DNA of 64,000 bases from Clostridiaceae bacterium. Its GTDB lineage: Bacteria; Bacillota; Clostridia; Oscillospirales; QAMX01. The translations under genes were made by a program, and so were the position numbers. Each line of letters opens with the position of its first letter. The first letter of the stretch is position 1. The stretch is taken from NCBI GenBank assembly GCA_034926225.1, contig JAYFRF010000005.1:188884-252883 (forward strand). The letters are read 5' to 3'. The notes beneath the pieces were generated by a model, which was given only the letters and a program-made list of their open reading frames with translations, was not told the DNA's origin and ran no database searches. Positions 1 through 11,702 of the stretch are shown here, one piece after another.

Positions 1-177
1 TTCGATGCCGAGCTGACCCGTCCCGGCGAACAGATCGAGGACGCGCCGGCCTTCTATATCAAATTGTATCGCGTTGAATACGGACTGCTTCGTCCGCTCG
101 GTGGTGGGACGCGTATCGAGACCTTCGACGGATTTCAGCTTCCGGCCGCGGGCGTCGCCTGTAATCACGCGCATCAT
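1..177 (-). CDS. rsmD: 16S rRNA (guanine966-N2)-methyltransferase RsmD, N-terminal part (gene runs off the left edge)
   Basis: My own translation of the minus strand from the ATG at 177 gives MMRVITGDARGRKLKSVEGLDTRPTTERTKQSVFNAIQFDIEGRRVLDLFAGTGQLGIE. This is a typical RsmD N-terminus with the SAM-binding LDLFAGTG motif. The ATG overlaps the uvrC stop (ATGA). It is absent from the ORF track because it is under 60 aa. Confidence 0.75.
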   Translation of the reverse strand, partial: MMRVITGDARGRKLKSVEGLDTRPTTERTKQSVFNAIQFDIEGRRVLDLFAGTGQLGIE

Positions 178-2039
178 AGATTATTCGTTTCCTTATTATC
201 GTTATTTTCAGTGGCATTTGCCGCGGCTGTATGCAGCCGCGCGTACACCGCCGCCGCCACGTTTTTCGGCACCGCCGCTGCGAGTTCTTCCTCCGACGCC
301 GCGCGGATCGCGCGTACGGAGCCGAATTTCTTCATCAACGCGGCTTTCCGCGTTTCTCCGACCCCTGGAATCTCATCCAAGGCCGATTTCCTTACCTTTT
401 TATCACGCAGCGATCGGTGGTACTCAATCGCGAACCGGTGTACCTCCTCGCCGATCGTGCCGATCAGCGTAAAGAGCGCCGGCTGCGTCCGAATCCCGAT
501 CTCCCGGCCGTCCGGCTCCACCAGAGCGCGTGTCCGGTGATGGTCGTCCTTGACCATGCCGAGCACGGGAATCCGCATGCCCGTTTCCTCGAGCACCTGG
601 CGCGCGGTCTGCGCATGCTGCTCGCCGCCGTCGATTAAGAACACGTCCGGCAGCGGCAGGAATTTCTCGTCCCCTAGAGCTGCGCGCGCGAGCCTTCTGC
701 GCAAAACCTCCGCCATTGAAGCGTAATCGTCCGGCGCTTCCCGCTCGAGCTTAAACTTGCGATAAGCGCTCCGACGCGGCTTCCCGCCTTCGAATACGAC
801 CATCGCGCCGACGGTTTCCTCCCCTGCCGTATGCGAGATATCGTACGCTTCCAGACGGTACGGGGCGTTTTCCATGCCGAGCGCCGACTGCAGAAGCGTT
901 AGTCCCCGTCCGGTTTTTTCCTCGCGAAGCGTCGCGATCCTCGCTTCCTCCCGGGCGTTTTCCATCGCCATCTCCAGAAGCTTCCGCTTTTCGCCGCGCT
1001 GCGGAAACAGCACATATACCCGCCTTTTGGCAAGTCCGGTTAAATATTCGCTCAAAAGCGCCGCGTCCGGCGTCTCCTGCGACAGCAGCACCTCCCGCGG
1101 CAGTATCGGACGGTCGCGGTAGTATTGTGTCACAAATTGCGACAGCGTATCCGCTGCGTCTTCCTCGTCCTCGCATACCGGCAGCAGCGTCTGATCCTTG
1201 CCGAGAAGCGTCCCCTCGACGTAATGCAGCACTGCGATGCACGCACGCGCGGTACCGTTATACAGGCATACGACGTCAGCATCCGGTACATGCGCCGCTA
1301 CGACCTTCTGCCGCCGGTCAAGCCGCTCGATCGCCTGCAGTCTGTCGCGCAGGTATGCCGCCCGCTCATAGTCGAGCGCTTCGGCCGCGTCCTCCATCTG
1401 TGCGCCAAGCGACGCCGTCAGCTCATCGCAGCGTCCCGCAAGCATCATACTCGCTTCTTCCATCAGCGCCCGGTACTGCTCCCGGGATATGCCGCCCTCG
1501 CAGACGCCGACGCAGCGCCCGAGGTGCCGTCTTAAGCACGGCCGTTCTTTTCCGATATCGCGCGGAAACCGGCGCGAGCAGTTTGGCAGCTTTAATGTTT
1601 CCTGTACGATGTCGACGACCTCATGCGCGATGCTCCTGCCGCCGTACGGTCCGAAGCAGCGCTTTCCCGTCTCCGCCTGCGCGGAAAGTATTAGCCGCGG
1701 ATACTCGGCGGCCGGGTCGTAGCAGATGAATGGATAACCCTTATCATCCTTTAAAAGAATGTTATATTTGGGCTGATAATGCTTAATGAGGGTATTTTCC
1801 AAGACGAGCGCCTCAAGCTCCGTATCAGTGACGATCGTCTCAAAGTGATCGATATGGGAAACGAGCCTGCGCGTCTTAATCCACTGTGTTTCCGGATTTT
1901 GAAAATACTGTGTCACGCGGTTTTTTAGGTTTTTGGCCTTCCCAACATAGATGACCACGCCGGCCGCGTCGATCATCCGATAAACGCCGGGCTTTTGTGG
2001 ACACATATTTGCTTTTTCTCGCAGCGCTTCAATATTCAT
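174..2039 (-). CDS. uvrC: Excinuclease ABC subunit C (UvrC)
   Basis: 621 aa. GIY-YIG N-terminus PGVYRMIDAAGVVIYVGKAKNLKNRVTQYF, a UVR domain, and a C-terminal (HhH)2 IPGVGETRKAALMKKFGS. Confidence 0.97.
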   Translation of the reverse strand: MNIEALREKANMCPQKPGVYRMIDAAGVVIYVGKAKNLKNRVTQYFQNPETQWIKTRRLVSHIDHFETIVTDTELEALVLENTLIKHYQPKYNILLKDDKGYPFICYDPAAEYPRLILSAQAETGKRCFGPYGGRSIAHEVVDIVQETLKLPNCSRRFPRDIGKERPCLRRHLGRCVGVCEGGISREQYRALMEEASMMLAGRCDELTASLGAQMEDAAEALDYERAAYLRDRLQAIERLDRRQKVVAAHVPDADVVCLYNGTARACIAVLHYVEGTLLGKDQTLLPVCEDEEDAADTLSQFVTQYYRDRPILPREVLLSQETPDAALLSEYLTGLAKRRVYVLFPQRGEKRKLLEMAMENAREEARIATLREEKTGRGLTLLQSALGMENAPYRLEAYDISHTAGEETVGAMVVFEGGKPRRSAYRKFKLEREAPDDYASMAEVLRRRLARAALGDEKFLPLPDVFLIDGGEQHAQTARQVLEETGMRIPVLGMVKDDHHRTRALVEPDGREIGIRTQPALFTLIGTIGEEVHRFAIEYHRSLRDKKVRKSALDEIPGVGETRKAALMKKFGSVRAIRAASEEELAAAVPKNVAAAVYARLHTAAANATENNDNKETNNL

Positions 2040-2283
2040 GGCGGCTCCCCATCCGAAGGTACAATTCCCGTTGTTCTTTATTGTACCTCAAAAGCGCGCA
2101 AAGGTCAAGTGTTTCTGTAACCGAATTGTAATATTTTTTCCGCCGCACTTTTCTGCCTTTCTTATTCCGAAACGGCAAAAAATCGGCTTTCCCCCATTGT
2201 GTTCCTTTTTATTTTGTGCTATAATAATCTGAATCTAAGGTTTTCCCTTACTCGCTTAAATCATACGAATAAGGATCTTCATT

Positions 2284-3009
2284 ATGTTAAACGCCGTTTT
2301 CTTCCTCGCGGCGGTAGCCGGCGGCGCGTTTGTGCAAGCAGCGTCCGGCTTCGGCTTCGGCATTTTCGTCATGATGTTCTTCCCGCTGTGCCTGCCGAAC
2401 TACGGCATGTGCGTGACGCTGTCGGGTCTATTATCCATCGGCACAACGGTTGTCACCACCATCCAGTACCGTCAATATATCGCCTGGAGGAAGCTCCTCA
2501 TCCCGTCTGTCTGCTTCTGCGTGATCAGCGCAGTCATTATCACCATCGCGGCGGGGCAGGCGGATTCGTTAATGAAACGGCTCCTTGGCGGTGCGTTGAT
2601 TCTCTTGAGTATGTACTTCCTCTTTTTAGGCAAAAATATGAAAATCCACGCAACACCGGCCGCCGGTGTTGCCGCCGGCTCTCTTTCCGGTCTTTTGTCC
2701 GGCCTGTTTTCGATCGGCGGCCCGCCGATGGTCGTCTATCTGCTCGCGGGAACCGATTCCAAGGAGGAATACCTCGCCACGATTCAGGCGTACTTCACCG
2801 TGACAAATCTCTTCGTCCTAGCGGTACGCGCGATGAACGGCATGGTGACAAAAACCGTCTTTTCCCACGCCGCCCTTGGACTTGTCGGCATTGCACTCGG
2901 TGTGTTCCTCGGACGCAAGGTGTTCCGCAAGCTGGACGCAAACCGTCTGCGCTTCATCATCTACCTTTTTATGGCGGCGTCCGGCGTCATCACCCTCGTG
3001 AAAGGTTAG
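2284..3009 (+). CDS. TauE/SafE (TSUP) family anion exporter-like membrane protein
   Basis: 241 aa and multi-TM. It has Gly-rich repeats (AAVAGGAFVQAASGFGFGIF and GSLSGLLSGLFSIGGPPMVVYLL) typical of the internally duplicated TSUP family. A Shine-Dalgarno-like AAGGA precedes the ATG. Confidence 0.85.
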   Translation: MLNAVFFLAAVAGGAFVQAASGFGFGIFVMMFFPLCLPNYGMCVTLSGLLSIGTTVVTTIQYRQYIAWRKLLIPSVCFCVISAVIITIAAGQADSLMKRLLGGALILLSMYFLFLGKNMKIHATPAAGVAAGSLSGLLSGLFSIGGPPMVVYLLAGTDSKEEYLATIQAYFTVTNLFVLAVRAMNGMVTKTVFSHAALGLVGIALGVFLGRKVFRKLDANRLRFIIYLFMAASGVITLVKG

Positions 3010-3013
3010 TCCT

Positions 3014-5257
3014 ATGGCCCAGTATTACAGCGATCTTCCGCTGCCGCCGCGAAGAACCGCCCCGGAAGCGGATAAAACGCCTCCGCACAGCTTTCGTGCC
3101 GCGCTGACCCTGACCCCCTCGCATGACCGGCTCTTTTTCTACGCCGAGCTTTCCGGTACCCCCGCCGTCTATCGCGGACGAGGCTATTTCACCGAAAAGT
3201 CCTCCGATCCGGCGGGCGCGGGCTTCCGTGTGCCGCAAATCTCGCTGCTCGACCCGTTTTTATGGCAGTACCGCACCGTCTCGCCGCAGCATTTCAAGAT
3301 CGTTCTGCGTGTCATCATCCCAAAGCTTCTGCGCGACGGCGTGCAGCTCTCCTGTGCGCTGTCTATGACCGATGACCCGCCCCTGCGCGTGGATGTCGCC
3401 TACGACGAGGGCGTCGAGGTATTCTCGCTGCATATCCTCTCCGTCGTTCCGCGTGCCGGTTTGACCGCGCTCATGGGGCTTGACGACTACATGCTCTCGG
3501 AGAACACGCTCTACCGCATCCGGCAGACACACCTATCCGAGCTTGCCCCATACCCCGATGGCGATTCGATCCTCCCGCTCGATCAAGCATCCTCACTCGG
3601 CAGGCTCTGTGACCGCGCTTCCTATCTATTTGCGGGTTCTGGGGTACAGGCTCTGCGCGACTGCGGGCGCGGCATCAAATCCGCGCGGCGTCAAGTTACC
3701 GGAATCGCCTCCGCCGCCGCGGAGGTCTTAACCGCTCTGCGCCGTCAGGTACTCGACGACGATACCGATACCCACGGCTCCCCCCTGCCGCCCCGCCGTC
3801 AGCCGCAGGACGCCCCCGACGCACACGCCGTGACTTTCCCTTTGCCGACGCGTACGGCGCCGACGCCCATCCGGGAGATCGCGCTTGAGCCTCCGGCGCT
3901 TGGCCGGGCGGTCATCCTGCCAACCCCGATCTCCGGCTCTGTGAAAAACGCGGTATTCTTGAACGATGCCCGCCGTCTTCGGGACTATGCCGTCGCCCGT
4001 GCCAATTTCGTCCCCTTCCGCGCCGGTCGTCCGACCTACGCCGACATGACCGCCGCGCAGAAAAGCTGGTACTTCCACTGGCGCGCGCAGTTCCATCGCG
4101 GGGTTGTCCTGAAGACAGACATCTCCTATATCTACGTGGCGGCCTACGAGCTTCTAAATTCTGTCGCCGCTTCCGGCGCGACGGCGCTCTCCGCTCTCCT
4201 GCGCCTCTGGGAAAGCTACCGCGACGCGTTTCCCTACCTCGACCGCTGTATGCCCGGCTGGTGCGCCGATTATATGCTCCTAAACGACCTGGGGCAGGAT
4301 TTTGACTCCCTGCAGGAGCGCATTCCGTTTTCCATCACCGAAACGGATGTCCCCGCGGAGGTATTCTGCAACCGCCGTCTTCGGGAAGGTCTGTCCGCGC
4401 TGCCGCTGTCTGTGCTCGGCGCGCTGGGCGGCTACCCCATCCTCGACTCCCGCTTCTGCGCCGAGGAAAGCCGGCGCGCACGCTGCGAGACGGCCGTCGC
4501 CCGGGCACTGCGCGCCGCCGAGGGCATACGCAAAGCCTCCGGCAAACCGCTGCTCGACTCATATGCCCCGATGCAGACCACCTATCTGCACGACAGCTTC
4601 TATGGCGCCGTCATCGGCCGTGCGTCCTCCCGCCGCATCGAGCTGACCTATCGGCCCTATGCGCGCGATCCGCAGTTCCGCACGCTGCTTGCGGGTATTC
4701 TGCGTTACACAGAAAACCTTCTTCGCAAACGGGAACGCTTCCCCGGGCGTCTGAAAGCAGAAAGCTTGCCCCCGGATATAGAAAGTGCGATCCTCAACGC
4801 CTTAGCTATCCCAAAGGAAGTGGGCGCCGTACCGCCGGACGCTCCGGATAAGCCGCGTGAGAAGCTTGTCATCGACCTCGAACGCGCGCGTGCGCTTGAG
4901 GATGCGTCATGGGAAAATACCCGCCGCCTGCTCGACGCGCTCGGTACCGAACCCGCGGCTGCCGCCGAGCCGGAGACAGCGCCCGAGCCCGAGGAGCCGC
5001 CTATGCCGGAATCCGAGGAAACGGAGGAGGCGGAGAACGTCCCCTTCATGGAACGCCTGAACGCTACGCAGGCCGCCGTACTCGACGCGCTGAAGCGGGA
5101 GGATACGGACGCCGTACGCCGAATCTGCTCGGAGGCGATGACGTTCCCGGATGCGGTGTTTGAGGAAATCAACGAAATCGCACTCGACGCACTCGGCGAT
5201 CTGCTGATCGATACGGGGATGGGCGTCATTTACGAGGAATACAAAACTCTTGTGTAA
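3014..5257 (+). CDS. TerB-N / TerB-C domain protein with an unassigned ~330-aa N-terminal region
   Basis: 747 aa. The central block AQKSWYFHWRAQFHRGVVLKTDISYIYVAAYELLN...WCADYMLLNDLG is recognised as a TerB-N domain. The C-terminal LNATQAAVLDALK...FPDAVFEEINEIALDALGDLLID is recognised as TerB-C. An acidic/Pro-rich linker (EPETAPEPEEPPMPESEETEE) separates them. The gene starts 4 nt after the TSUP stop. Confidence 0.8.
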   Translation: MAQYYSDLPLPPRRTAPEADKTPPHSFRAALTLTPSHDRLFFYAELSGTPAVYRGRGYFTEKSSDPAGAGFRVPQISLLDPFLWQYRTVSPQHFKIVLRVIIPKLLRDGVQLSCALSMTDDPPLRVDVAYDEGVEVFSLHILSVVPRAGLTALMGLDDYMLSENTLYRIRQTHLSELAPYPDGDSILPLDQASSLGRLCDRASYLFAGSGVQALRDCGRGIKSARRQVTGIASAAAEVLTALRRQVLDDDTDTHGSPLPPRRQPQDAPDAHAVTFPLPTRTAPTPIREIALEPPALGRAVILPTPISGSVKNAVFLNDARRLRDYAVARANFVPFRAGRPTYADMTAAQKSWYFHWRAQFHRGVVLKTDISYIYVAAYELLNSVAASGATALSALLRLWESYRDAFPYLDRCMPGWCADYMLLNDLGQDFDSLQERIPFSITETDVPAEVFCNRRLREGLSALPLSVLGALGGYPILDSRFCAEESRRARCETAVARALRAAEGIRKASGKPLLDSYAPMQTTYLHDSFYGAVIGRASSRRIELTYRPYARDPQFRTLLAGILRYTENLLRKRERFPGRLKAESLPPDIESAILNALAIPKEVGAVPPDAPDKPREKLVIDLERARALEDASWENTRRLLDALGTEPAAAAEPETAPEPEEPPMPESEETEEAENVPFMERLNATQAAVLDALKREDTDAVRRICSEAMTFPDAVFEEINEIALDALGDLLIDTGMGVIYEEYKTLV

Positions 5258-5269
5258 AGGAGTCACGGC

Positions 5270-6586
5270 ATGAAGGTACAGATTCCGCGGCGCGTTGCGT
5301 CCGCCGTACTAAACTCCCTGTCCGCAGGCGTGGTGCCGCGCGTTGGGCAGGAATATATCGCCATCGGCCGCACGCGGGAAATCGCGGCGCTGCTTGCTGA
5401 TCTGAAAACCGTCGAGGATGGTGGCAGCGCGTTCCGGATGATCACCGGCCGTTACGGCTCCGGTAAAAGCTTTCTTCTGCAGCTTCTGCGTTCCCATGCG
5501 CTCGAACGCGGCTTCGCCGTCGCGGACTGCGATCTTTCCCCCGAGCGCAGGCTTGCCGGCGCCAAGGGGCAGGGGCTTGCCACCTACCGTGAACTGATGC
5601 GCAATCTTTCCTGCCGCGTCGCTCCCGACGGCGGCGCGCTGCCCGTCATCCTCTCCCGGTGGATCGCTTCCGTGCAGCTCGACTGCGCGAAGCGGGAGGG
5701 CCTTGCCCCCTCCGACCCCAAGCTCTCGCAGACGACGGAGCTTGCCATAACGGACGCCATCGCCGGCTTTTCAGGTCTTGTCCACGGCTTCGACTTCGCC
5801 GCAGCGGTCAGCGCCTTCTACCGCGGCCTGCGCGACGGCGATGAGGAGCTCAAAAACAGCGCGCTTCGGTGGCTTCGCGGGGAGTTCCCGAATAAGACGG
5901 AAGCTAAACGCGCGCTGCCCGTATCCTCCGTGATCACGGATGAGACCTGGTACGATTTTTTCAAGCTGATGTCCGCGCTGATGGTCGTCACCGGGCAAAA
6001 GGGGCTTCTCATCATCATCGACGAAGCCGTCAATCTCTATAAGATCGTTCAAACCGTCGCCCGTGAGGCAAACTATGAAAAGCTCTTAAATATCTTCAAC
6101 GACGCGACTCAAGGGAGACTCTCCCACACGGCCTTCTTCTTCGGTGGCACCCCCCAGCTCGTCGAGGATACCCGCCGCGGACTCTACAGCTATGAAGCGC
6201 TCCGTTCCCGTCTGCGGGCAAACCGCTTCGCGGGCGACGGCGTACAGGATTTCGCGAGTCCCGTTTTAGCGCTCGCTCCACTCACCCCCGAAGAGCTGCT
6301 CGCGCTCTTGAAGCGTATCGTCGTCCTCCACGCGCTGCGCTACGACTGGACGCCGCCCGTCACCGATGAGCAGCTCGCCGCCTTTGTCACGGATATCGCC
6401 TCCCGTATGGGCGCGGATGTGCTTTTAACCCCGCGCGAGGTCGTCCGCGACTTCACGGGGCTTCTCAATCTCCTGCAGCAGAACCCCGGTGAAAGCTTTG
6501 AATCCCTCGCCGGGTCACTCGACATCAAGCCCGCCGACAGCCGCGAAAACGAGGAAACCGGCGAATTCGCGGAATTCTCCCTTTGA
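5270..6586 (+). CDS. DUF2791 / BrxD-like P-loop ATPase
   Basis: 438 aa. N-terminus VVPRVGQEYIAIGRTREIAALLADL, Walker A GRYGSGKS, DLSPERRL, and Walker B LLIIIDEAVNL. This is collinear with the DUF2791 (BREX BrxD-type) ATP-binding family. An AAGGAG SD lies 7 nt upstream. The gene starts 12 nt after the TerB gene. Confidence 0.8.
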   Translation: MKVQIPRRVASAVLNSLSAGVVPRVGQEYIAIGRTREIAALLADLKTVEDGGSAFRMITGRYGSGKSFLLQLLRSHALERGFAVADCDLSPERRLAGAKGQGLATYRELMRNLSCRVAPDGGALPVILSRWIASVQLDCAKREGLAPSDPKLSQTTELAITDAIAGFSGLVHGFDFAAAVSAFYRGLRDGDEELKNSALRWLRGEFPNKTEAKRALPVSSVITDETWYDFFKLMSALMVVTGQKGLLIIIDEAVNLYKIVQTVAREANYEKLLNIFNDATQGRLSHTAFFFGGTPQLVEDTRRGLYSYEALRSRLRANRFAGDGVQDFASPVLALAPLTPEELLALLKRIVVLHALRYDWTPPVTDEQLAAFVTDIASRMGADVLLTPREVVRDFTGLLNLLQQNPGESFESLAGSLDIKPADSRENEETGEFAEFSL

Positions 6587-6595
6587 TTTCGTGCC

Positions 6596-7129
6596 ATGGG
6601 AAATTATTCACTGCCGGATACCCCCCGGTGCATCCTCGGCATCGACCCCGGTTACGCCATTGTCGGCTTCGGCATGATCTCCTCTTCCTCGGGTGTACGC
6701 TGCTCCCACATCCGCCACGGCGCGATCACCACCCCCGCCGAGCTGCCCCTTGCGGAGCGGCTGCGCATTATCTATGCCGATATGACCTCACTCATCGCCG
6801 AGCGGCGTCCCGACGCGGCTGCCATCGAGAAGCTCTACTTTAATACGAATACCACCACCGCCATCGGGGTAGCCCAGGCACGCGGCGTCATCCTGCTCGC
6901 CCTCGCGCAGGCGAACATACCGCTTTTTGAGTACAGCCCGTCGGAAATCAAGCAGGCTGTCGTCGGCTACGGCAAGGCGGAGAAGGCGCAGATGATGGAG
7001 ATGACGCGCGCGCTGCTGGGTCTTCCGGCGCGCCCGAAACCCGACGATGCCGCCGACGCACTCGCCGTCGCGCTTTGTCACGCCGCGATGCGGACAAGTC
7101 AGTTAAACTTTAAGCACCAAAACGGCTGA
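6596..7129 (+). CDS. ruvC: Crossover junction endodeoxyribonuclease RuvC
   Basis: ILGIDPGYAIVGFG, EKLYFNTNTTTAIGVAQARGV and KPDDAADALAVALCHA match the RuvC acidic catalytic tetrad layout. Confidence 0.95.
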   Translation: MGNYSLPDTPRCILGIDPGYAIVGFGMISSSSGVRCSHIRHGAITTPAELPLAERLRIIYADMTSLIAERRPDAAAIEKLYFNTNTTTAIGVAQARGVILLALAQANIPLFEYSPSEIKQAVVGYGKAEKAQMMEMTRALLGLPARPKPDDAADALAVALCHAAMRTSQLNFKHQNG

Positions 7130-7146
7130 AAGGTTATGTTAAGGCT

Positions 7147-7746
7147 ATGTTTTACTATCTGGAAGGGACGATCGCCCATCTTGACTCCCATATCGCCGTG
7201 GTAGACTGCGGCGGCGTCGGCTATCTGTGCAGCATCTCCCTGCATACGCATGGTAAGCTCGCGCGCGGCGCGAAATCGAAACTTTATACATACCTGAACG
7301 TACGCGAGGACACCTTTGATCTGTACGGCTTTGCCGATCTGGAAGAAAAAAACTGCTTTACGCTCTTAACCGGTGTATCCGGCGTCGGCATGAAAGTCGC
7401 GCTGTCGATTCTCTCTACGCTGTCGCCCGATCAGTTCATGCTTGCCGTGCTCTCGAGTGACGAAAAAGCGCTCACCCGCGCGCCCGGCGTCGGTAAAAAG
7501 CTTGCGCAGCGGCTTATTCTGGAATTGAAGGATAAACTGAAAAAGGAATATGCCGCCGCCGACGCCTCGGAGGATTTTCTTCCCGCCGCCGATGCGCAGG
7601 ACAAGGCCGGAGAAGCGCGGATGGCACTCCAGGCGCTCGGCTACTCAGCATCCGAGGCCGCCGCCGCGCTGCGCAAGGTCGATATCTCCGCGCTGTCTCT
7701 GGAAGAAATCATCCGCGCCGCACTCAAAGGTCTTGTGCGCGGTTAA
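7147..7746 (+). CDS. ruvA: Holliday junction DNA helicase subunit RuvA
   Basis: 199 aa. OB N-domain, HhH motifs LTGVSGVGMKVALSILS and LTRAPGVGKKLAQRLILEL, and a C-terminal domain III. Confidence 0.95.
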   Translation: MFYYLEGTIAHLDSHIAVVDCGGVGYLCSISLHTHGKLARGAKSKLYTYLNVREDTFDLYGFADLEEKNCFTLLTGVSGVGMKVALSILSTLSPDQFMLAVLSSDEKALTRAPGVGKKLAQRLILELKDKLKKEYAAADASEDFLPAADAQDKAGEARMALQALGYSASEAAAALRKVDISALSLEEIIRAALKGLVRG

Positions 7747-7772
7747 TGTATTCATATAAGGAGCGGTTTATC

Positions 7773-8597
7773 ATGGAAGTTTATCATGCGTATGAAATGA
7801 CCCGCGTCGCCGCCGCGTTTACCGCCTCTCTCGGCGTGCAGCCGCCGCGGATGGCCCAGCCCGCCGCCGATCCTCTGACGCGTCTCCTCGCCGATGCCTT
7901 CGACGGCAGACCCGCACAGAAGGCGGTCATCTATAACCCCGACGCCATCGCTTTATGGCTCTATCAGAAATACACCCCCGATTTTGCGGAGGTGACCCGC
8001 TATACCCAGCTTGCCCTGCCGCTACGTACCATGATGCCTTCAGTCACCCCGGTTTGCTTCGCGACCATGTACACCGGCGTTGCCCCTCAGATTCACGGCA
8101 TCCAGAAGTATGAAAAGCCCGTCGTCCGCGTCGATTCCGTCTTCGACGCGCTCATCCGCGCCGGTAAAAAGTGCGCTATCGTCAGTCAGACCGGTGCCAG
8201 CATGTCCCGTATCTTCCTTGAGCGCGGCATGGACTACTTCACCGACTGTGAAAGCGACGAGGACGCGGTCCGGCTCGGCATCCGGCTCATCGAATCGGAC
8301 AAGTACGACTTTATCGCGATCTACAACGGCTGGTACGACCACATGATGCATGCAACCCGGGTGGAAGATCCGGAAGCACTGCGGATTTTCCGCGACAACT
8401 GCCGCTTCTTCGGCGAAATCGCCCGCGCCGTACAGCGCGCCTACGCCGCCTACGACACCTTCCTCGGTTTTTCCACTGACCACGGCTGCCACGACCATCC
8501 CGACACAGGGCATGGCACCCACGGCACCGATCTGCCGGACGACTTAAACGTGATGCACTTCTACGGTACCATGAAAGGCACACGCCATGGCGATTGA
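7773..8597 (+). CDS. Alkaline-phosphatase superfamily (nucleotide pyrophosphatase/phosphodiesterase-like) protein
   Basis: Nucleophile-Thr motif [23 protein letters not shown], plus YDHMMH and STDHGCH..GHGTHG metal-ligand-like motifs. I trimmed the start to the ATG at 7773, which is preceded by AAGGAG (the track ORF starts at 7746). The 3' end overlaps the ruvB start by 11 nt. Confidence 0.7.
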
Positions 8598-9681
8598 ATT
8601 TGACGATCAGCTCAGCGAACGCATCCTCGATACGACGGCGCAGCCCGCCGACGACGCGGAGGGCAGTCTCCGTCCGCAAAAGCTTAACGAGTACATCGGT
8701 CAGGATAAAGTCAAGGAAAACCTGAGCGTTTTTATCGAAGCGGCACGCATGCGCGGCGAATCACTCGACCATGTGCTGCTGTCCGGCCCCCCCGGACTTG
8801 GCAAAACCACCCTTGCGGGCGTCATCGCAAACGAGATGGGCAGTCATATCCGCGTCACCTCCGGCCCCGCGATCGAGAAGGCCGGCGATCTCGCGGCTCT
8901 GCTCACAAACCTCGCTCCGCACGACATCCTCTTTATCGACGAAATCCACCGCTTAAACCGCGCGGTTGAGGAGGTATTATACCCTGCGATGGAGGACTTC
9001 GCGCTCGATATCATCATCGGCAAAGGTCCCTCCGCACGCTCCATCCGTCTCGACCTGCCGCCGTTCACGCTCATCGGCGCGACAACCCGCGCGGGGCAGC
9101 TCTCCGCCCCCCTGCGCGACCGTTTCGGCGTTCTTTTAAAGCTCGAGCTTTACTCCCCCGCCGAGCTCGAACGTATCGTCCGCCGCTCCGCCGAAATCCT
9201 TGCAGTCAGCGTCGATCATGACGGCGCGCATGAGATCGCCGGCCGTTCCCGCGGCACCCCCCGTATTGCGAACCGCCTGTTAAAACGCGTGCGTGACTAC
9301 GCGCAGGTGCGCGCGAGCGGGCATATCACCCGCGACGTCGCCGATATGGCGCTGCGCGCGCTCGATATCGACGCGCTCGGCCTCGACGCGACCGACCGCC
9401 GGATGCTACGTGGGATCATCGATATCTACGGCGGCGGCCCCGTCGGATTGGATGCCCTCTCCGCCACCGTCGGCGAGGAGGCTGTCACGCTCGAGGATGT
9501 CTACGAACCGTATCTTTTACAGCTCGGCTTTCTCTCCCGCACCCCTCGCGGGCGCTGCGCCACGGTTCGCGCATACGAGCATCTTGGCATCACATTTGTC
9601 GCCGCGGACCCACCGCGCGAGGAGGAAACACTGCAGCAGCGGATAGATGAATGGTTAAAAGCTTCCAAATCCAACGCCTAA
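8587..9681 (+). CDS. ruvB: Holliday junction DNA helicase RuvB
   Basis: Walker [12 protein letters not shown], Walker [26 protein letters not shown], and a winged-helix C-terminus. Confidence 0.97.
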
Positions 9682-9767
9682 AACTGCGATTTCCCACCCC
9701 ATTGTGCATGTTGTACGAGAACGGACTGCCAATAGTATACAAATTAACAAAATATGAACACGCCCTC

Positions 9768-9796
9768 TTGACAAAGCGTAAAATACCGTATATAAT
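9768..9796 (+). promoter_or_regulatory. Sigma-A type promoter upstream of the sigH-like gene
   Basis: TTGACA (9768-9773), a 17-nt spacer, then TATAAT (9791-9796). Both hexamers are perfect consensus, about 20 nt upstream of the CDS. Confidence 0.6.
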
Positions 9797-9814
9797 ACGA
9801 GACAGACAGGAATC

Positions 9815-10438
9815 GTGAAGAAAATGCAGCCGACAGAGTTTGAGAAATTATCGGATGATGCTCTTTGCCGTTTGAGCAACACCGGCACGCGAGAGGCCGG
9901 CGAGGTTTTGGTAGAGCGTTATGCACGGCTTGTACGCTGTGTTGCGCGTCCGTTTTACTTGGCGGGCGGAGACCACGAGGATCTGTTGCAGGAAGGAATG
10001 ATCGGTCTCCTAAAGGCCATCCGGGAGTACTCCCCGGAAAAGTCCTCCTTCCAGACTTTCGCAGCGCGTTGTATCCGCTATAGGATTTATGACGCGATCA
10101 AACAAGCGCAAGGAAAGAATCAGCAGGTGCTAAGCACCGCACTGCCTTTGGAGCATCCCGGAACTGATGCCGAAGATCCGTTCGATTGGTTATCCGACCA
10201 TGAATCCGATCCGGAAGCGCTTGTAATCCACAGGGATGAGCAGCGGCAGATCGCCGCTGAGCTCGACGCACTCTTGTCCGGTTTTGAGAAAAGTGTCTTA
10301 TCTCTCTATTTGGAAGGCCTTTCATTTTCTGAGATGGCGCGCCGGTTACACCGTCCGGTGAAATCGGTTGACAACGCCGTGACCCGAATCCGCAACAAGC
10401 TCTCCCCGCGTCTTTCCCCTCGGGATAAGCTGTCCTGA
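9815..10438 (+). CDS. sigH: RNA polymerase sigma factor, SigH (Spo0H)-like
   Basis: PFYLAGGDHEDLLQEGMIGLLKAIREY...FQTFAARCIRYRIYDAIKQA is collinear with Bacillus SigH region 2. A C-terminal region 4 HTH is present (SFSEMARRLHRPVKSVDNAVTRIRNKL). The start is a GTG at 9815; the ATG at 9824 is an alternative. Confidence 0.7.
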   Translation: MKKMQPTEFEKLSDDALCRLSNTGTREAGEVLVERYARLVRCVARPFYLAGGDHEDLLQEGMIGLLKAIREYSPEKSSFQTFAARCIRYRIYDAIKQAQGKNQQVLSTALPLEHPGTDAEDPFDWLSDHESDPEALVIHRDEQRQIAAELDALLSGFEKSVLSLYLEGLSFSEMARRLHRPVKSVDNAVTRIRNKLSPRLSPRDKLS

Positions 10439-10574
10439 GAAAAAATGCCCCAGGCTTTACCGGGAAACCCCCGATAAGCAATATTAAGATGCCCGGCGTA
10501 ATAAAACCCCTGCACGTTCTTAAAACGCTCGAGGTTTTCGTCGATGGCACGACAATCAAAGAGAGGTTTAACAC

Positions 10575-10856
10575 ATGTACCAGGACAAAACACTCAAGTG
10601 CAAAGAATGTGGCGCTGATTTCGTTTTCACCGCCGGTGAGCAGGAATTCTACGCCGAGCGCGGCTTCCAGAATGAGCCGCAGCGCTGCAAGGCCTGCCGT
10701 GACAATCGCAAGAACGCTACCCGTGCTCCCCGTGAGTACTTTGTCGCCACTTGCGCGATGTGCGGCGGCGAAGCTCGTGTTCCGTTCGAGCCGAAGACCG
10801 ATCGTCCGGTTTACTGCAGCGAGTGCTTCGCGAAGATGCGTCAGCAACAGGGCTAA
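10575..10856 (+). CDS. Zinc-ribbon (CxxC-x17-CxxC, duplicated) domain protein
   Basis: 93 aa with two zinc-ribbon units: CKECGADFVFTAGEQEFYAERGFQNEPQRCKAC and CAMCGGEARVPFEPKTDRPVYCSEC. An AGAGG SD is present. Confidence 0.8.
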   Translation: MYQDKTLKCKECGADFVFTAGEQEFYAERGFQNEPQRCKACRDNRKNATRAPREYFVATCAMCGGEARVPFEPKTDRPVYCSECFAKMRQQQG

Positions 10857-10883
10857 TCCCTTTTCACATCTTTACAAGTCGTC

Positions 10884-10917
10884 AAAGCGCTCTCCCAATC
10901 GGGAGAGCGCTTTTTTT
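10884..10917 (+). terminator. Rho-independent terminator after the zinc-ribbon gene
   Basis: AAAGCGCTCTCCC-AATC-GGGAGAGCGCTTT followed by a T run. Confidence 0.8.
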
Positions 10918-10929
10918 ATACTTTATCGC

Positions 10930-11559
10930 TTACTGCGTGCACTGCGCGACGCTGACCTCATACGCTACCCGCGCCTGACTCTCCGTGCCGACGAGCTTGG
11001 TATACGCCCTGCTTTGCAGCCTGCCTGTAAAGGTGACACGCGTATACGGCTCCATTCCGGCGCAAAGGCGCGCGATGCTGCCCCAGGTGACGCAGGGTAT
11101 GTAGTCAAACCGCGTCCGGATTCGTTCTTCCCGGAGCCCCTCCGCCGATGCCGTGACCGGCGGTGCCGCGCGGTCCACCCGCAGCATGATATCCGTGATC
11201 TCCCGACCATACGGCGTGCAGCGGTAGATCGGCGGCTTGCAGATCACCCCGGTCAGGCTCACGCGGTTATCACAGGCGTCCTCGCAGCGTTCCAGCGACT
11301 TTGCCCATGCTGAAATCTGTAAACGGTTCCCGACAGGGCCTCGGTTGTTATACGAGCGCACCTGTCCGAACAACCGCACGCGTTCCCCCACTCTCATTCG
11401 CAGTACCATAGCTTCCGGCGCTATGATGTTCAGGACATCCACAGTGCCGGAAAGTCTTTCCACCTCCAGTGGAAATGTGTAAAAGATGACCCCGTGACTC
11501 TCGTGCGAAACAATCGGGGCGGCCTGAATATCGCCGCAAAGATGCAATACGTTTTCCAT
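10930..11559 (-). CDS. Tandem OB-fold, SSB-like protein (no acidic C-terminal tail)
   Basis: The N-terminus NVLHLCGDIQAAPIVSHESHGVIFYTFPLEVERLSGTVDVLNI resembles the clostridial two-OB 'single-stranded DNA-binding protein' family. A second OB-like half (NRVSLTGVICKPP...) follows. The start is trimmed to the ATG at 11559, which has an AGAAGGGA SD. Confidence 0.5.
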   Translation of the reverse strand: MENVLHLCGDIQAAPIVSHESHGVIFYTFPLEVERLSGTVDVLNIIAPEAMVLRMRVGERVRLFGQVRSYNNRGPVGNRLQISAWAKSLERCEDACDNRVSLTGVICKPPIYRCTPYGREITDIMLRVDRAAPPVTASAEGLREERIRTRFDYIPCVTWGSIARLCAGMEPYTRVTFTGRLQSRAYTKLVGTESQARVAYEVSVAQCTQ

Positions 11560-11702
11560 ATAACGTGTCCCTTCTTTCGAAATCTGCCGGCGATGTATCG
11601 TATGTGCTGACTTTCCCATTTATGCCGAGCTTTCCCAAGTCTCTTTTTCTTGACTTCTTTCGCCCTTCGCGATATACTGGTTTTATCAATGGAGGGAATC
11701 AT

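Follow-up and report, generated by a model that had tools for sequence, protein, structure and literature searches.

In a 64,000-nucleotide stretch of DNA from a Clostridiaceae bacterium (contig JAYFRF010000005.1 of assembly GCA_034926225.1; the whole stretch is called the window hereafter), the Holliday-junction genes ruvC, ruvA and ruvB belong to a plus-strand array of seven intact co-directional genes at positions 2284–9681, as defined by open reading frame (ORF) coordinates. The array begins with a cassette made of a TauE-family permease gene and two genes, sngA and sngB, whose products are homologous to components of the anti-phage system Shango, and it holds a gene of the alkaline-phosphatase superfamily (PDE) between ruvA and ruvB. 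We regard the array as an operon fusion of an ordinary kind, in which a known defence module takes part in a new form without its helicase. We consider it probable that it arose in two steps, that it forms one transcription unit and that the cassette and the ruv genes are accidental neighbours.

The two steps would be nested and unrelated, both of them ordinary genome rearrangements. In the older one, a small NPP-type alkaline-phosphatase-fold gene would have been captured in the gap between ruvA and ruvB, where it would have become translationally coupled to ruvB by an 11-nucleotide overlap and would have been retained by the whole clade. In the second, recent step, which would have taken place in the ancestor that the window shares with one related locus (L002), TauE-SngA-SngB together with its own extended −10 promoter would have become attached to ruvC at its 5′ end, where synteny breaks, with deletion of the ancestral ruvC promoter. 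Since then ruvC-ruvA-PDE-ruvB would have been transcribed by read-through from the promoter at 2197–2225, and the window ruvC would probably be translated by re-initiation after the sngB stop codon. The cassette genes would have stayed functional, and their adjacency to ruv would reflect a landing place and not a shared pathway. Gene identities, spacing, occurrence in relatives, promoter loss and purifying selection are direct observations, from which co-transcription, translational coupling and the sequence of the two steps are deduced.

The elements of the array are as follows.
2197–2225, plus strand: candidate array promoter of the extended −10 type, TTGTGT-N17-TGcTATAAT, at the head of the cassette
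2284–3009, plus strand: TauE/TSUP-family membrane permease, which opens the cassette (Pfam PF01925, 78.9 bits, cut-off 32.6, residues 7–235)
3014–5257, plus strand: SngA-like TerB_N/TerB_C protein of 747 amino acids (Pfam TerB_N 2e-20 and TerB_C 1e-8, above cut-offs; PADLOC SngA 1.1e-54, residues 308–744)
5270–6586, plus strand: SngB-like P-loop ATPase (DUF2791 / BrxC_BrxD) of 438 amino acids (PADLOC SngB 1.3e-166, profile positions 4–438 of 439; Pfam PF10923 2.5e-149)
6587–6595, plus strand: fusion junction of 9 nucleotides from the sngB stop to the ruvC ATG, with no Shine-Dalgarno sequence and with the ancestral ruvC promoter gone
6596–7129, plus strand: ruvC, Holliday-junction resolvase (NCBIfam NF000711, 202.6 bits, cut-off 163; Pfam RuvC 1e-48)
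7147–7746, plus strand: ruvA (TIGR00084, 205.7 bits, cut-off 85)
7773–8597, plus strand: PDE, NPP/phosphonoacetate-hydrolase-type protein of the alkaline-phosphatase superfamily, 274 amino acids (Pfam PF01663, 36.2 bits, cut-off 23)
8587–9681, plus strand: ruvB (NF000868, 520 bits, cut-off 282)

The Pfam, NCBIfam and PADLOC matches bear out the gene identities that a first-pass annotation, made from the letters alone, had assigned. RuvC, RuvA and RuvB all scored above the curated equivalog cut-offs, and in the translation of SngB both the Walker A (GRYGSGKS) and the Walker B (LLIIIDE) motifs are intact.

Loss of the ruvC Promoter and Probable Co-transcription of the Array

The most telling observation lies at the junction between sngB and ruvC. 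In all three of the cassette-free relatives that carry PDE between ruvA and ruvB (L089, L090 and L098/L099; hereafter, with the window and L002, the PDE clade), a TTGACG-N17-TATAAT promoter and a GGAGG-type ribosome-binding site stand just 5′ of ruvC. This ancestral promoter is gone in both cassette-bearing genomes, where the sngB stop codon is separated from the ruvC ATG by 9 nucleotides (window) and 13 nucleotides (L002). The window ruvC is without any Shine-Dalgarno sequence (...ccctttgatttcgtgccATG), while L002 keeps an AAGGGGA ribosome-binding site before ruvC. At the level of sequence, promoter loss speaks most strongly for a likely dependence of ruvC-ruvA-PDE-ruvB on transcription that enters from the cassette, and the junction of the window suggests that ruvC translation is coupled to sngB termination.

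The remaining junctions are also short. The intergenic gaps measure 4 nucleotides between TauE and SngA, 12 between SngA and SngB, 17 between RuvC and RuvA and 26 between RuvA and PDE, and PDE overlaps ruvB by 11 nucleotides (the first 11 nucleotides of ruvB are ATGGCGATTGA). ORF coordinates reproduced every one of the gap and overlap figures given in the first-pass annotation. An alternative ATG of PDE at 7746 has no ribosome-binding site, and gene callers as well as all relatives take the ATGGAAGT start.

A consensus scan of the plus strand detected no promoter-like site matching at least 9 of 12 positions inside 2284–9681, and in a lenient scan the best matches within the array reached 8 of 12, for example TCGACG-16-TAAGAT at 6018 in sngB. 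It had previously been stated that a recognisable promoter appears only after ruvB. The perfect site at 9768 is real and none of comparable quality lies inside the array, but the array head does carry one, at 2197–2225. Its TGnTATAAT motif occurred seven times in the 64 kb against an expectation of 0.86, and equivalents of this head promoter are found 5′ of TauE in L002 (TTGCGT-N17-TGCTATAAT) and in L003 (TTGCAA-N17-TGTTATAAT). As for transcription stops, four terminator-like plus-strand matches were found in the array (2662, 2674, 3939 and 6751), all of them weak and within coding sequence, with stems of 5–7 bp and poor T runs, and with no excess over shuffled sequence; the scan as a whole gave 15 matches compared to 10.3 ± 3.4 in shuffled sequences, and it found no terminator between sngB and ruvC. 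The earlier remark that 2284–9681 lacks an internal terminator was therefore borne out. Since spacing is tight, internal terminators and promoters are missing and the ancestral ruvC promoter was lost, co-transcription is supported, and all seven genes most likely constitute one transcription unit. The first-pass annotation had already considered it probable that the TSUP, TerB, ATPase and phosphatase-family genes are co-transcribed with the ruv genes, a proposal that the loss of the ruvC promoter and the presence of the head promoter strengthen.

The genes could also be closely packed without forming one operon, if a cryptic promoter in the 3′ part of sngB drove ruvC-ruvA-PDE-ruvB. Weak sigma-70-like matches such as that at 6018 do occur in the array, consensus scans miss non-canonical or alternative-sigma promoters, and the ribosome-binding site 5′ of ruvC in L002 indicates that at least translation can be independent there. 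However, nothing in 2284–9681 reaches 9 of 12, the strong promoter of the three relatives was clearly deleted and not moved, and transcripts from the cassette would run on into ruvC despite any internal promoter, since sngB and ruvC are not separated by a terminator. We regard this alternative as unlikely.

In E. coli, ruvAB form a LexA-regulated operon and ruvC lies in a separate upstream operon with yebC. The core order ruvC-ruvA-ruvB of the window is that of most of its relatives, in which foreign genes are common; unlike other ruv operons, however, the window has its native ruvC promoter replaced by that of the incoming cassette, and its control region lacks a LexA/Cheo box. SOS control of the array was discarded, given that no GAAC-N4-GTTC (Cheo/LexA) box is present in 2040–2283 and that matches across the window were below chance. 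No riboswitch or leader RNA was found either, as Rfam gave no match at E ≤ 0.1 5′ of TauE or anywhere in 1500–11500.

The ruv Operon in Relatives and the Order of Events

When species-representative genomes were scanned with RuvC, the matches listed comprised 80 ruvC loci with 50–64% RuvC identity (64% being the closest), mostly from Oscillospiraceae and Acutalibacteraceae; closer relatives were found through exact-protein look-ups. The 80 loci were searched by tblastn with nine window proteins. Most of them have a compact ruvC-ruvA-ruvB arrangement, often followed by the same sigma-factor gene as in the window, and in none of the 80 was TauE, SngA, SngB or PDE detected at ruvC.

In several of these loci the gap between ruvA and ruvB is enlarged and holds assorted unrelated genes (L014, L016, L026, L030, L043, L049, L051, L056, L075, L076, L077, L086 and L088), among them those for a P-loop kinase-like protein of about 170 amino acids (four genomes), a TPR membrane protein (two genomes), a Cys-rich protein (two genomes), a Y1-transposase-like protein and small membrane proteins. 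As unrelated genes recur there, foreign genes in this gap are commonplace in Oscillospirales, and the slot appears to tolerate insertions.

PDE occupies this slot without the cassette in L089, L090/L091 and L098/L099, that is, as ruvC-ruvA-PDE-ruvB, and the homologues concerned are at least 65% identical to that of the window. PDE takes this position in L002, L089, L090 and L098 alike. A PDE homologue of 52% identity lies alone, away from ruv, and the family as a whole is large and Clostridial (2932 matches). The overlap of PDE with ruvB (ATGGCnATTGA, with a GTG start in L098) is kept in all five genomes of the PDE clade (window, L002, L089, L090 and L098), although their RuvB proteins are only 78–90% identical, which suggests selection for translational coupling of PDE to RuvB. 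The phosphatase-family gene had earlier been counted among the genes probably co-transcribed with ruv; it does belong to the predicted operon, but the cassette-free relatives indicate that it joined in a separate, older event.

The DNA 5′ of ruvC is, judged from these genomes, a recurrent rearrangement breakpoint in the PDE clade. In L089 (5487–8544) and L090 (5476–8547) a GFO_IDH_MocA oxidoreductase gene and an SLH-serpin gene lie 5′ of ruvC, and this block is inverted in one of the two. A GFO_IDH_MocA gene also lies 5′ of TauE in L003; an ancestral link through this gene was rejected, as the proteins are only 30% identical paralogues and the resemblance is a coincidence.

Age of the Fusion and Selection on the Cassette

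The fusion was seen only in the window genome and in L002, whose SngB is 93% identical, and both are closely related gut-type Clostridia. Synonymous divergence (dS) between the two was 0.85 for TauE, 0.81 for SngA and 0.76 for SngB, and 0.56–0.77 for uvrC, ruvC, ruvA, PDE and ruvB. As the dS of the cassette is about that of the flanking core genes, the cassette would already have been present in the ancestor of the window and L002 and inherited vertically since then. The ratio of nonsynonymous to synonymous divergence (omega) was 0.053 for SngB, 0.135 for TauE and 0.176 for SngA, and 0.057–0.09 for PDE; SngB is as constrained as RuvB. With values this low, all of these genes are under purifying selection, which indicates that the cassette genes still work and are not in decay. 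Recent horizontal transfer was rejected on grounds of composition, the GC content of the cassette (0.55–0.65) being like that of its neighbors and its dS equalling that of core genes.

The fusion thus dated offers a clean case of a mobile cassette overwriting the promoter of essential repair genes and being inherited vertically afterwards. It is useful for the study of operon evolution and of the domestication of defence-type genes, and it is not surprising in kind.

The Cassette as a Helicase-Less Relative of Shango

Three proteins make up the anti-phage system Shango, namely a TerB-like protein, an ATPase and an SF2 helicase of the DEAD/DEAH type (Johnson et al., 10.1101/2022.11.11.516204; Millman et al. 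2022, 10.1101/2022.05.11.491447); they are referred to here as SngA, SngB and SngC. The first two components are present in the window as clear homologues (PADLOC 1e-54 and 1e-166) in the canonical order, with SngB adjoining SngA at a gap of 12 nucleotides, and relatives with 67–69% SngB identity are complete three-gene Shango loci. Unlike these, the window has no SngC in its 64 kb and carries a TauE permease gene upstream instead. The position directly 3′ of SngB, which SngC takes in the canonical relatives, is held by ruvC; none of the window's large ORFs encodes a helicase, and two clear-cut SngC proteins (PADLOC 1e-264 and 1e-273) used as tblastn queries gave no match in the window, L001 or L002. 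The defining helicase being absent from the searched DNA, the cassette is, as far as these three loci tell, not a complete Shango system, and SngC could be encoded elsewhere in the genome. The locus also differs from Shango in lying between the core genes uvrC and ruvC, outside a defence island, and in its predicted transcriptional fusion to ruvC; that it is not a defence island follows from the remainder of the 64-kb window, which consists of housekeeping genes. What the first-pass annotation called a defence cassette thus corresponds to a Shango system that is incomplete.

SngB belongs to the same P-loop family as BrxD of BREX systems (PF10923, 2.5e-149), but its NCBIfam BREX_BrxD score of 171.5 bits stays below the cut-off of 350, and its match to the SngB model is far stronger. 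The idea of a BREX link, in which the ATPase would be BrxD and the alkaline-phosphatase-fold gene PglZ, was discarded, since PADLOC detected no PglZ or other BREX component among the seven proteins, the BrxD score was too low and PDE is joined to ruvAB also where SngAB is missing.

The N-terminal 300 or so amino acids of SngA (residues 1–309; 3014–3940) gave no Pfam match. The sequence of this region has diverged far more quickly than the other parts of the cassette, and SngA is 50% identical to its counterpart in L003, compared to 84% for SngB. It may represent a variable sensing or specificity region.

Genomic Contexts of the SngA-SngB Pair

The loci of SngB relatives, given with the SngB identity to the window protein, are arranged as follows.
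L001 (100%) and L002 (93%; metagenome-assembled genome GCA_034118045.1): array as in the window, uvrC and sigma-factor genes included
L097 (86%): SngB, then an unrelated gene
L003 (84%): TauE-YjbR-SngA-SngB-LplA and further genes; no ruv and no helicase
L007 (75%): SngA-SngB, then two unknown genes; no transporter adjoining the pair
L005 and L008 (69% and 67%): canonical SngA-SngB-SngC
L100–L102 (68%; 221–11598): SngA-SngB-Zip-Sua5/CoaE-peptidase-Mur ligase; no helicase, with short spacing and co-directional with housekeeping genes

In a neighbor-joining tree of SngB, all proteins with at least 75% identity form one helicase-less clade, of which the ruv fusion is a terminal twig, and L100 is best read as a separate loss of the helicase. 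Altogether, SngC is missing in five of the seven independent contexts examined, and none of the SngB loci examined lies in a defence island. A metagenome scan with SngB yielded no more than three loci, all belonging to the known 84% group. TauE is linked to SngA and SngB in the window, L002 and L003, which represent two distinct genomic contexts with dS above 1.3. As TauE and the same type of promoter accompany SngAB in both, the mobile unit would be promoter-TauE-SngA-SngB. In L003, a YjbR-family gene (a DNA-mimic-like fold family; 7562–7894) lies between TauE and SngA, and the window is without it. Counting the ZIP permease gene of L100, a transporter adjoins SngAB in three helicase-less contexts.

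These contexts bear on what the pair may do. SngAB of this clade, together with the adjoining transporter (TauE, or Zip in L100), could be a chromosomal module for membrane, metal or oxyanion stress that no longer acts in phage defence, which would explain why SngAB is found co-directional among housekeeping genes. The frequent lack of SngC, the recurrence of TauE in two contexts, the ZIP permease directly downstream of the pair in L100, the position outside defence islands and an omega as low as that of core genes are all in line with this idea, and TerB proteins have been proposed to function in membrane surveillance (bioRxiv 10.1101/2022.05.11.491447; 10.1101/2025.09.30.679545). However, the sample is small, the pair in L007 has no adjoining transporter, transporter adjacency could be due to chance, and SngB is still a full-length, high-scoring match to a defence profile (1e-166). 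We therefore hold this role to be improbable. Comparably improbable in our view is the wider proposal that the helicase-less SngAB clade, often with TauE, is a distinct undescribed two- or three-gene system that either recruits RuvAB-like host motors or was repurposed for membrane or oxyanion stress; if that were so, the promoter-replacing ruvCAB fusion of the window lineage would exemplify how a module of defence origin comes to control the expression of Holliday-junction genes.

More useful than the fusion as a lead is the persistence of SngA/SngB pairs without the helicase, under strong purifying selection, in several chromosomal contexts. If such pairs are active, they constrain models of Shango as to which component senses and which is the effector.

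Adjacency to ruv and the Case for a Shared Pathway

The first-pass annotation had taken the co-directional arrangement to argue for functional integration with the ruv genes. Such an integration would mean that the helicase-less SngAB makes up for the missing SngC with the RuvAB branch-migration motor, the RuvC nuclease or both, as a repair-coupled defence or DNA-surveillance module. It would fit the lack of SngC in the window, L001 and L002, next to canonical relatives that carry it directly 3′ of SngB, as well as the 9–13-nucleotide spacing between sngB and ruvC, the loss of an independent ruvC promoter, and the purifying selection under which the arrangement has stood since the window and L002 split. 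However, helicase loss is older than the fusion and independent of it, as the whole clade with at least 75% SngB identity is helicase-less and only its terminal twig lies beside ruv. A second helicase-less pair (L100) adjoins Zip, Sua5 and peptidase genes, the three Ruv proteins are equivalogs of the ordinary kind whose operon core recurs in relatives without the cassette, and RuvAB could act in trans, so that adjacency adds little. Integration is not supported by the distribution either: outside the window and L002, ruvC-ruvA-(PDE)-ruvB occurs in relatives without the cassette, and the cassette stands elsewhere in the other relatives sampled, observations of the kind that the first-pass annotation itself had named as refuting. 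We consider it highly improbable, and the helicase-less SngAB pair with a transporter, as a chromosomal module, is a more plausible novel lead than SngAB using RuvAB in place of SngC.

Several points nonetheless weigh against a two-step assembly of accidental neighbors in one transcription unit. The tight fusion, the loss of the ruvC promoter and the purifying selection maintained over a dS of about 0.75 would also be expected of a real functional link. The single transcript is read from sequence, and a weak or non-sigma-70 promoter inside sngB, such as the 8-of-12 site at 6018, is possible. The survey covered the RuvC matches listed (600 rows) and about ten independent SngB contexts, so that further ruv-linked cases may exist, and the loci L003, L007 and L097 may or may not come from near relatives of the window organism.

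The PDE Gene Between ruvA and ruvB

PDE is a member of the NPP-type alkaline-phosphatase superfamily according to its Pfam match, its fold and its conserved residues. A sequence search against the Protein Data Bank (PDB) gave no match, and a fold search was required. The AlphaFold model, built from 32 homologues, reached a predicted local distance difference test (pLDDT) score of 94, and Foldseek against the PDB retrieved NPP-type phosphodiesterases, phosphonoacetate hydrolase (PhnA) and PorX with E values of about 1e-8, TMq of 0.55–0.6 and 12–16% identity, the probability being 1.0 for the NPP and PhnA structures. Residues D57, T92, D189, H193, D236, H237, H240 and H250 are invariant in the 32 homologues and fit a working bimetallo site of NPP type, with Thr as the nucleophile, the roles of the residues being predicted without superposition on a solved structure. 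PDE thus shares with the NPP/PhnA branch (ENPP1/3/5/6, PhnA, PorX) the fold and the invariant Asp, Thr and His of an NPP-like site, but differs from it in being a minimal core of only 274 amino acids and in its location between ruvA and ruvB, which is specific to one clade. It gave no PADLOC match as PglZ. An NPP-type enzyme apparently coupled to ruvB in one clade is an unexplained association.

Genes and Signals Flanking the Array

The array is flanked by the following features.
174–2039, minus strand: uvrC, divergent from the array, with GIY-YIG, UVR and UvrC_RNaseH domains (Pfam); left edge of the rearranged region
9768–9796, plus strand: perfect sigma-70 promoter TTGACA-17-TATAAT (12 of 12) of the downstream sigma-factor gene, outside the array and kept in L089 and L090
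9815–10438, plus strand: sigma-70-family sigma factor (Pfam)
10575–10856, plus strand: treble-clef zinc-finger protein (Pfam)
10884–10913, plus strand: strong terminator with a 13-bp stem and a T run, 3′ of the zinc-finger gene; first convincing plus-strand stop downstream of the array

On the left side, uvrC has a promoter-like TTGACC-17-TACAAT on the minus strand (2108–2080). It adjoins the array only in L001 and L002, and it was found within 10 kb of ruvC in none of the 80 ruvC loci among the matches listed. On the right side, no hairpin or terminator was found after ruvB in 9660–9800, where folding was no better than in shuffled sequences (z = 0.43), so that the array transcript may continue into the sigma-factor gene. 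The sigma-factor and zinc-finger genes, which may form a sigma/anti-sigma pair, are kept together with their promoter 3′ of ruvB in many relatives.

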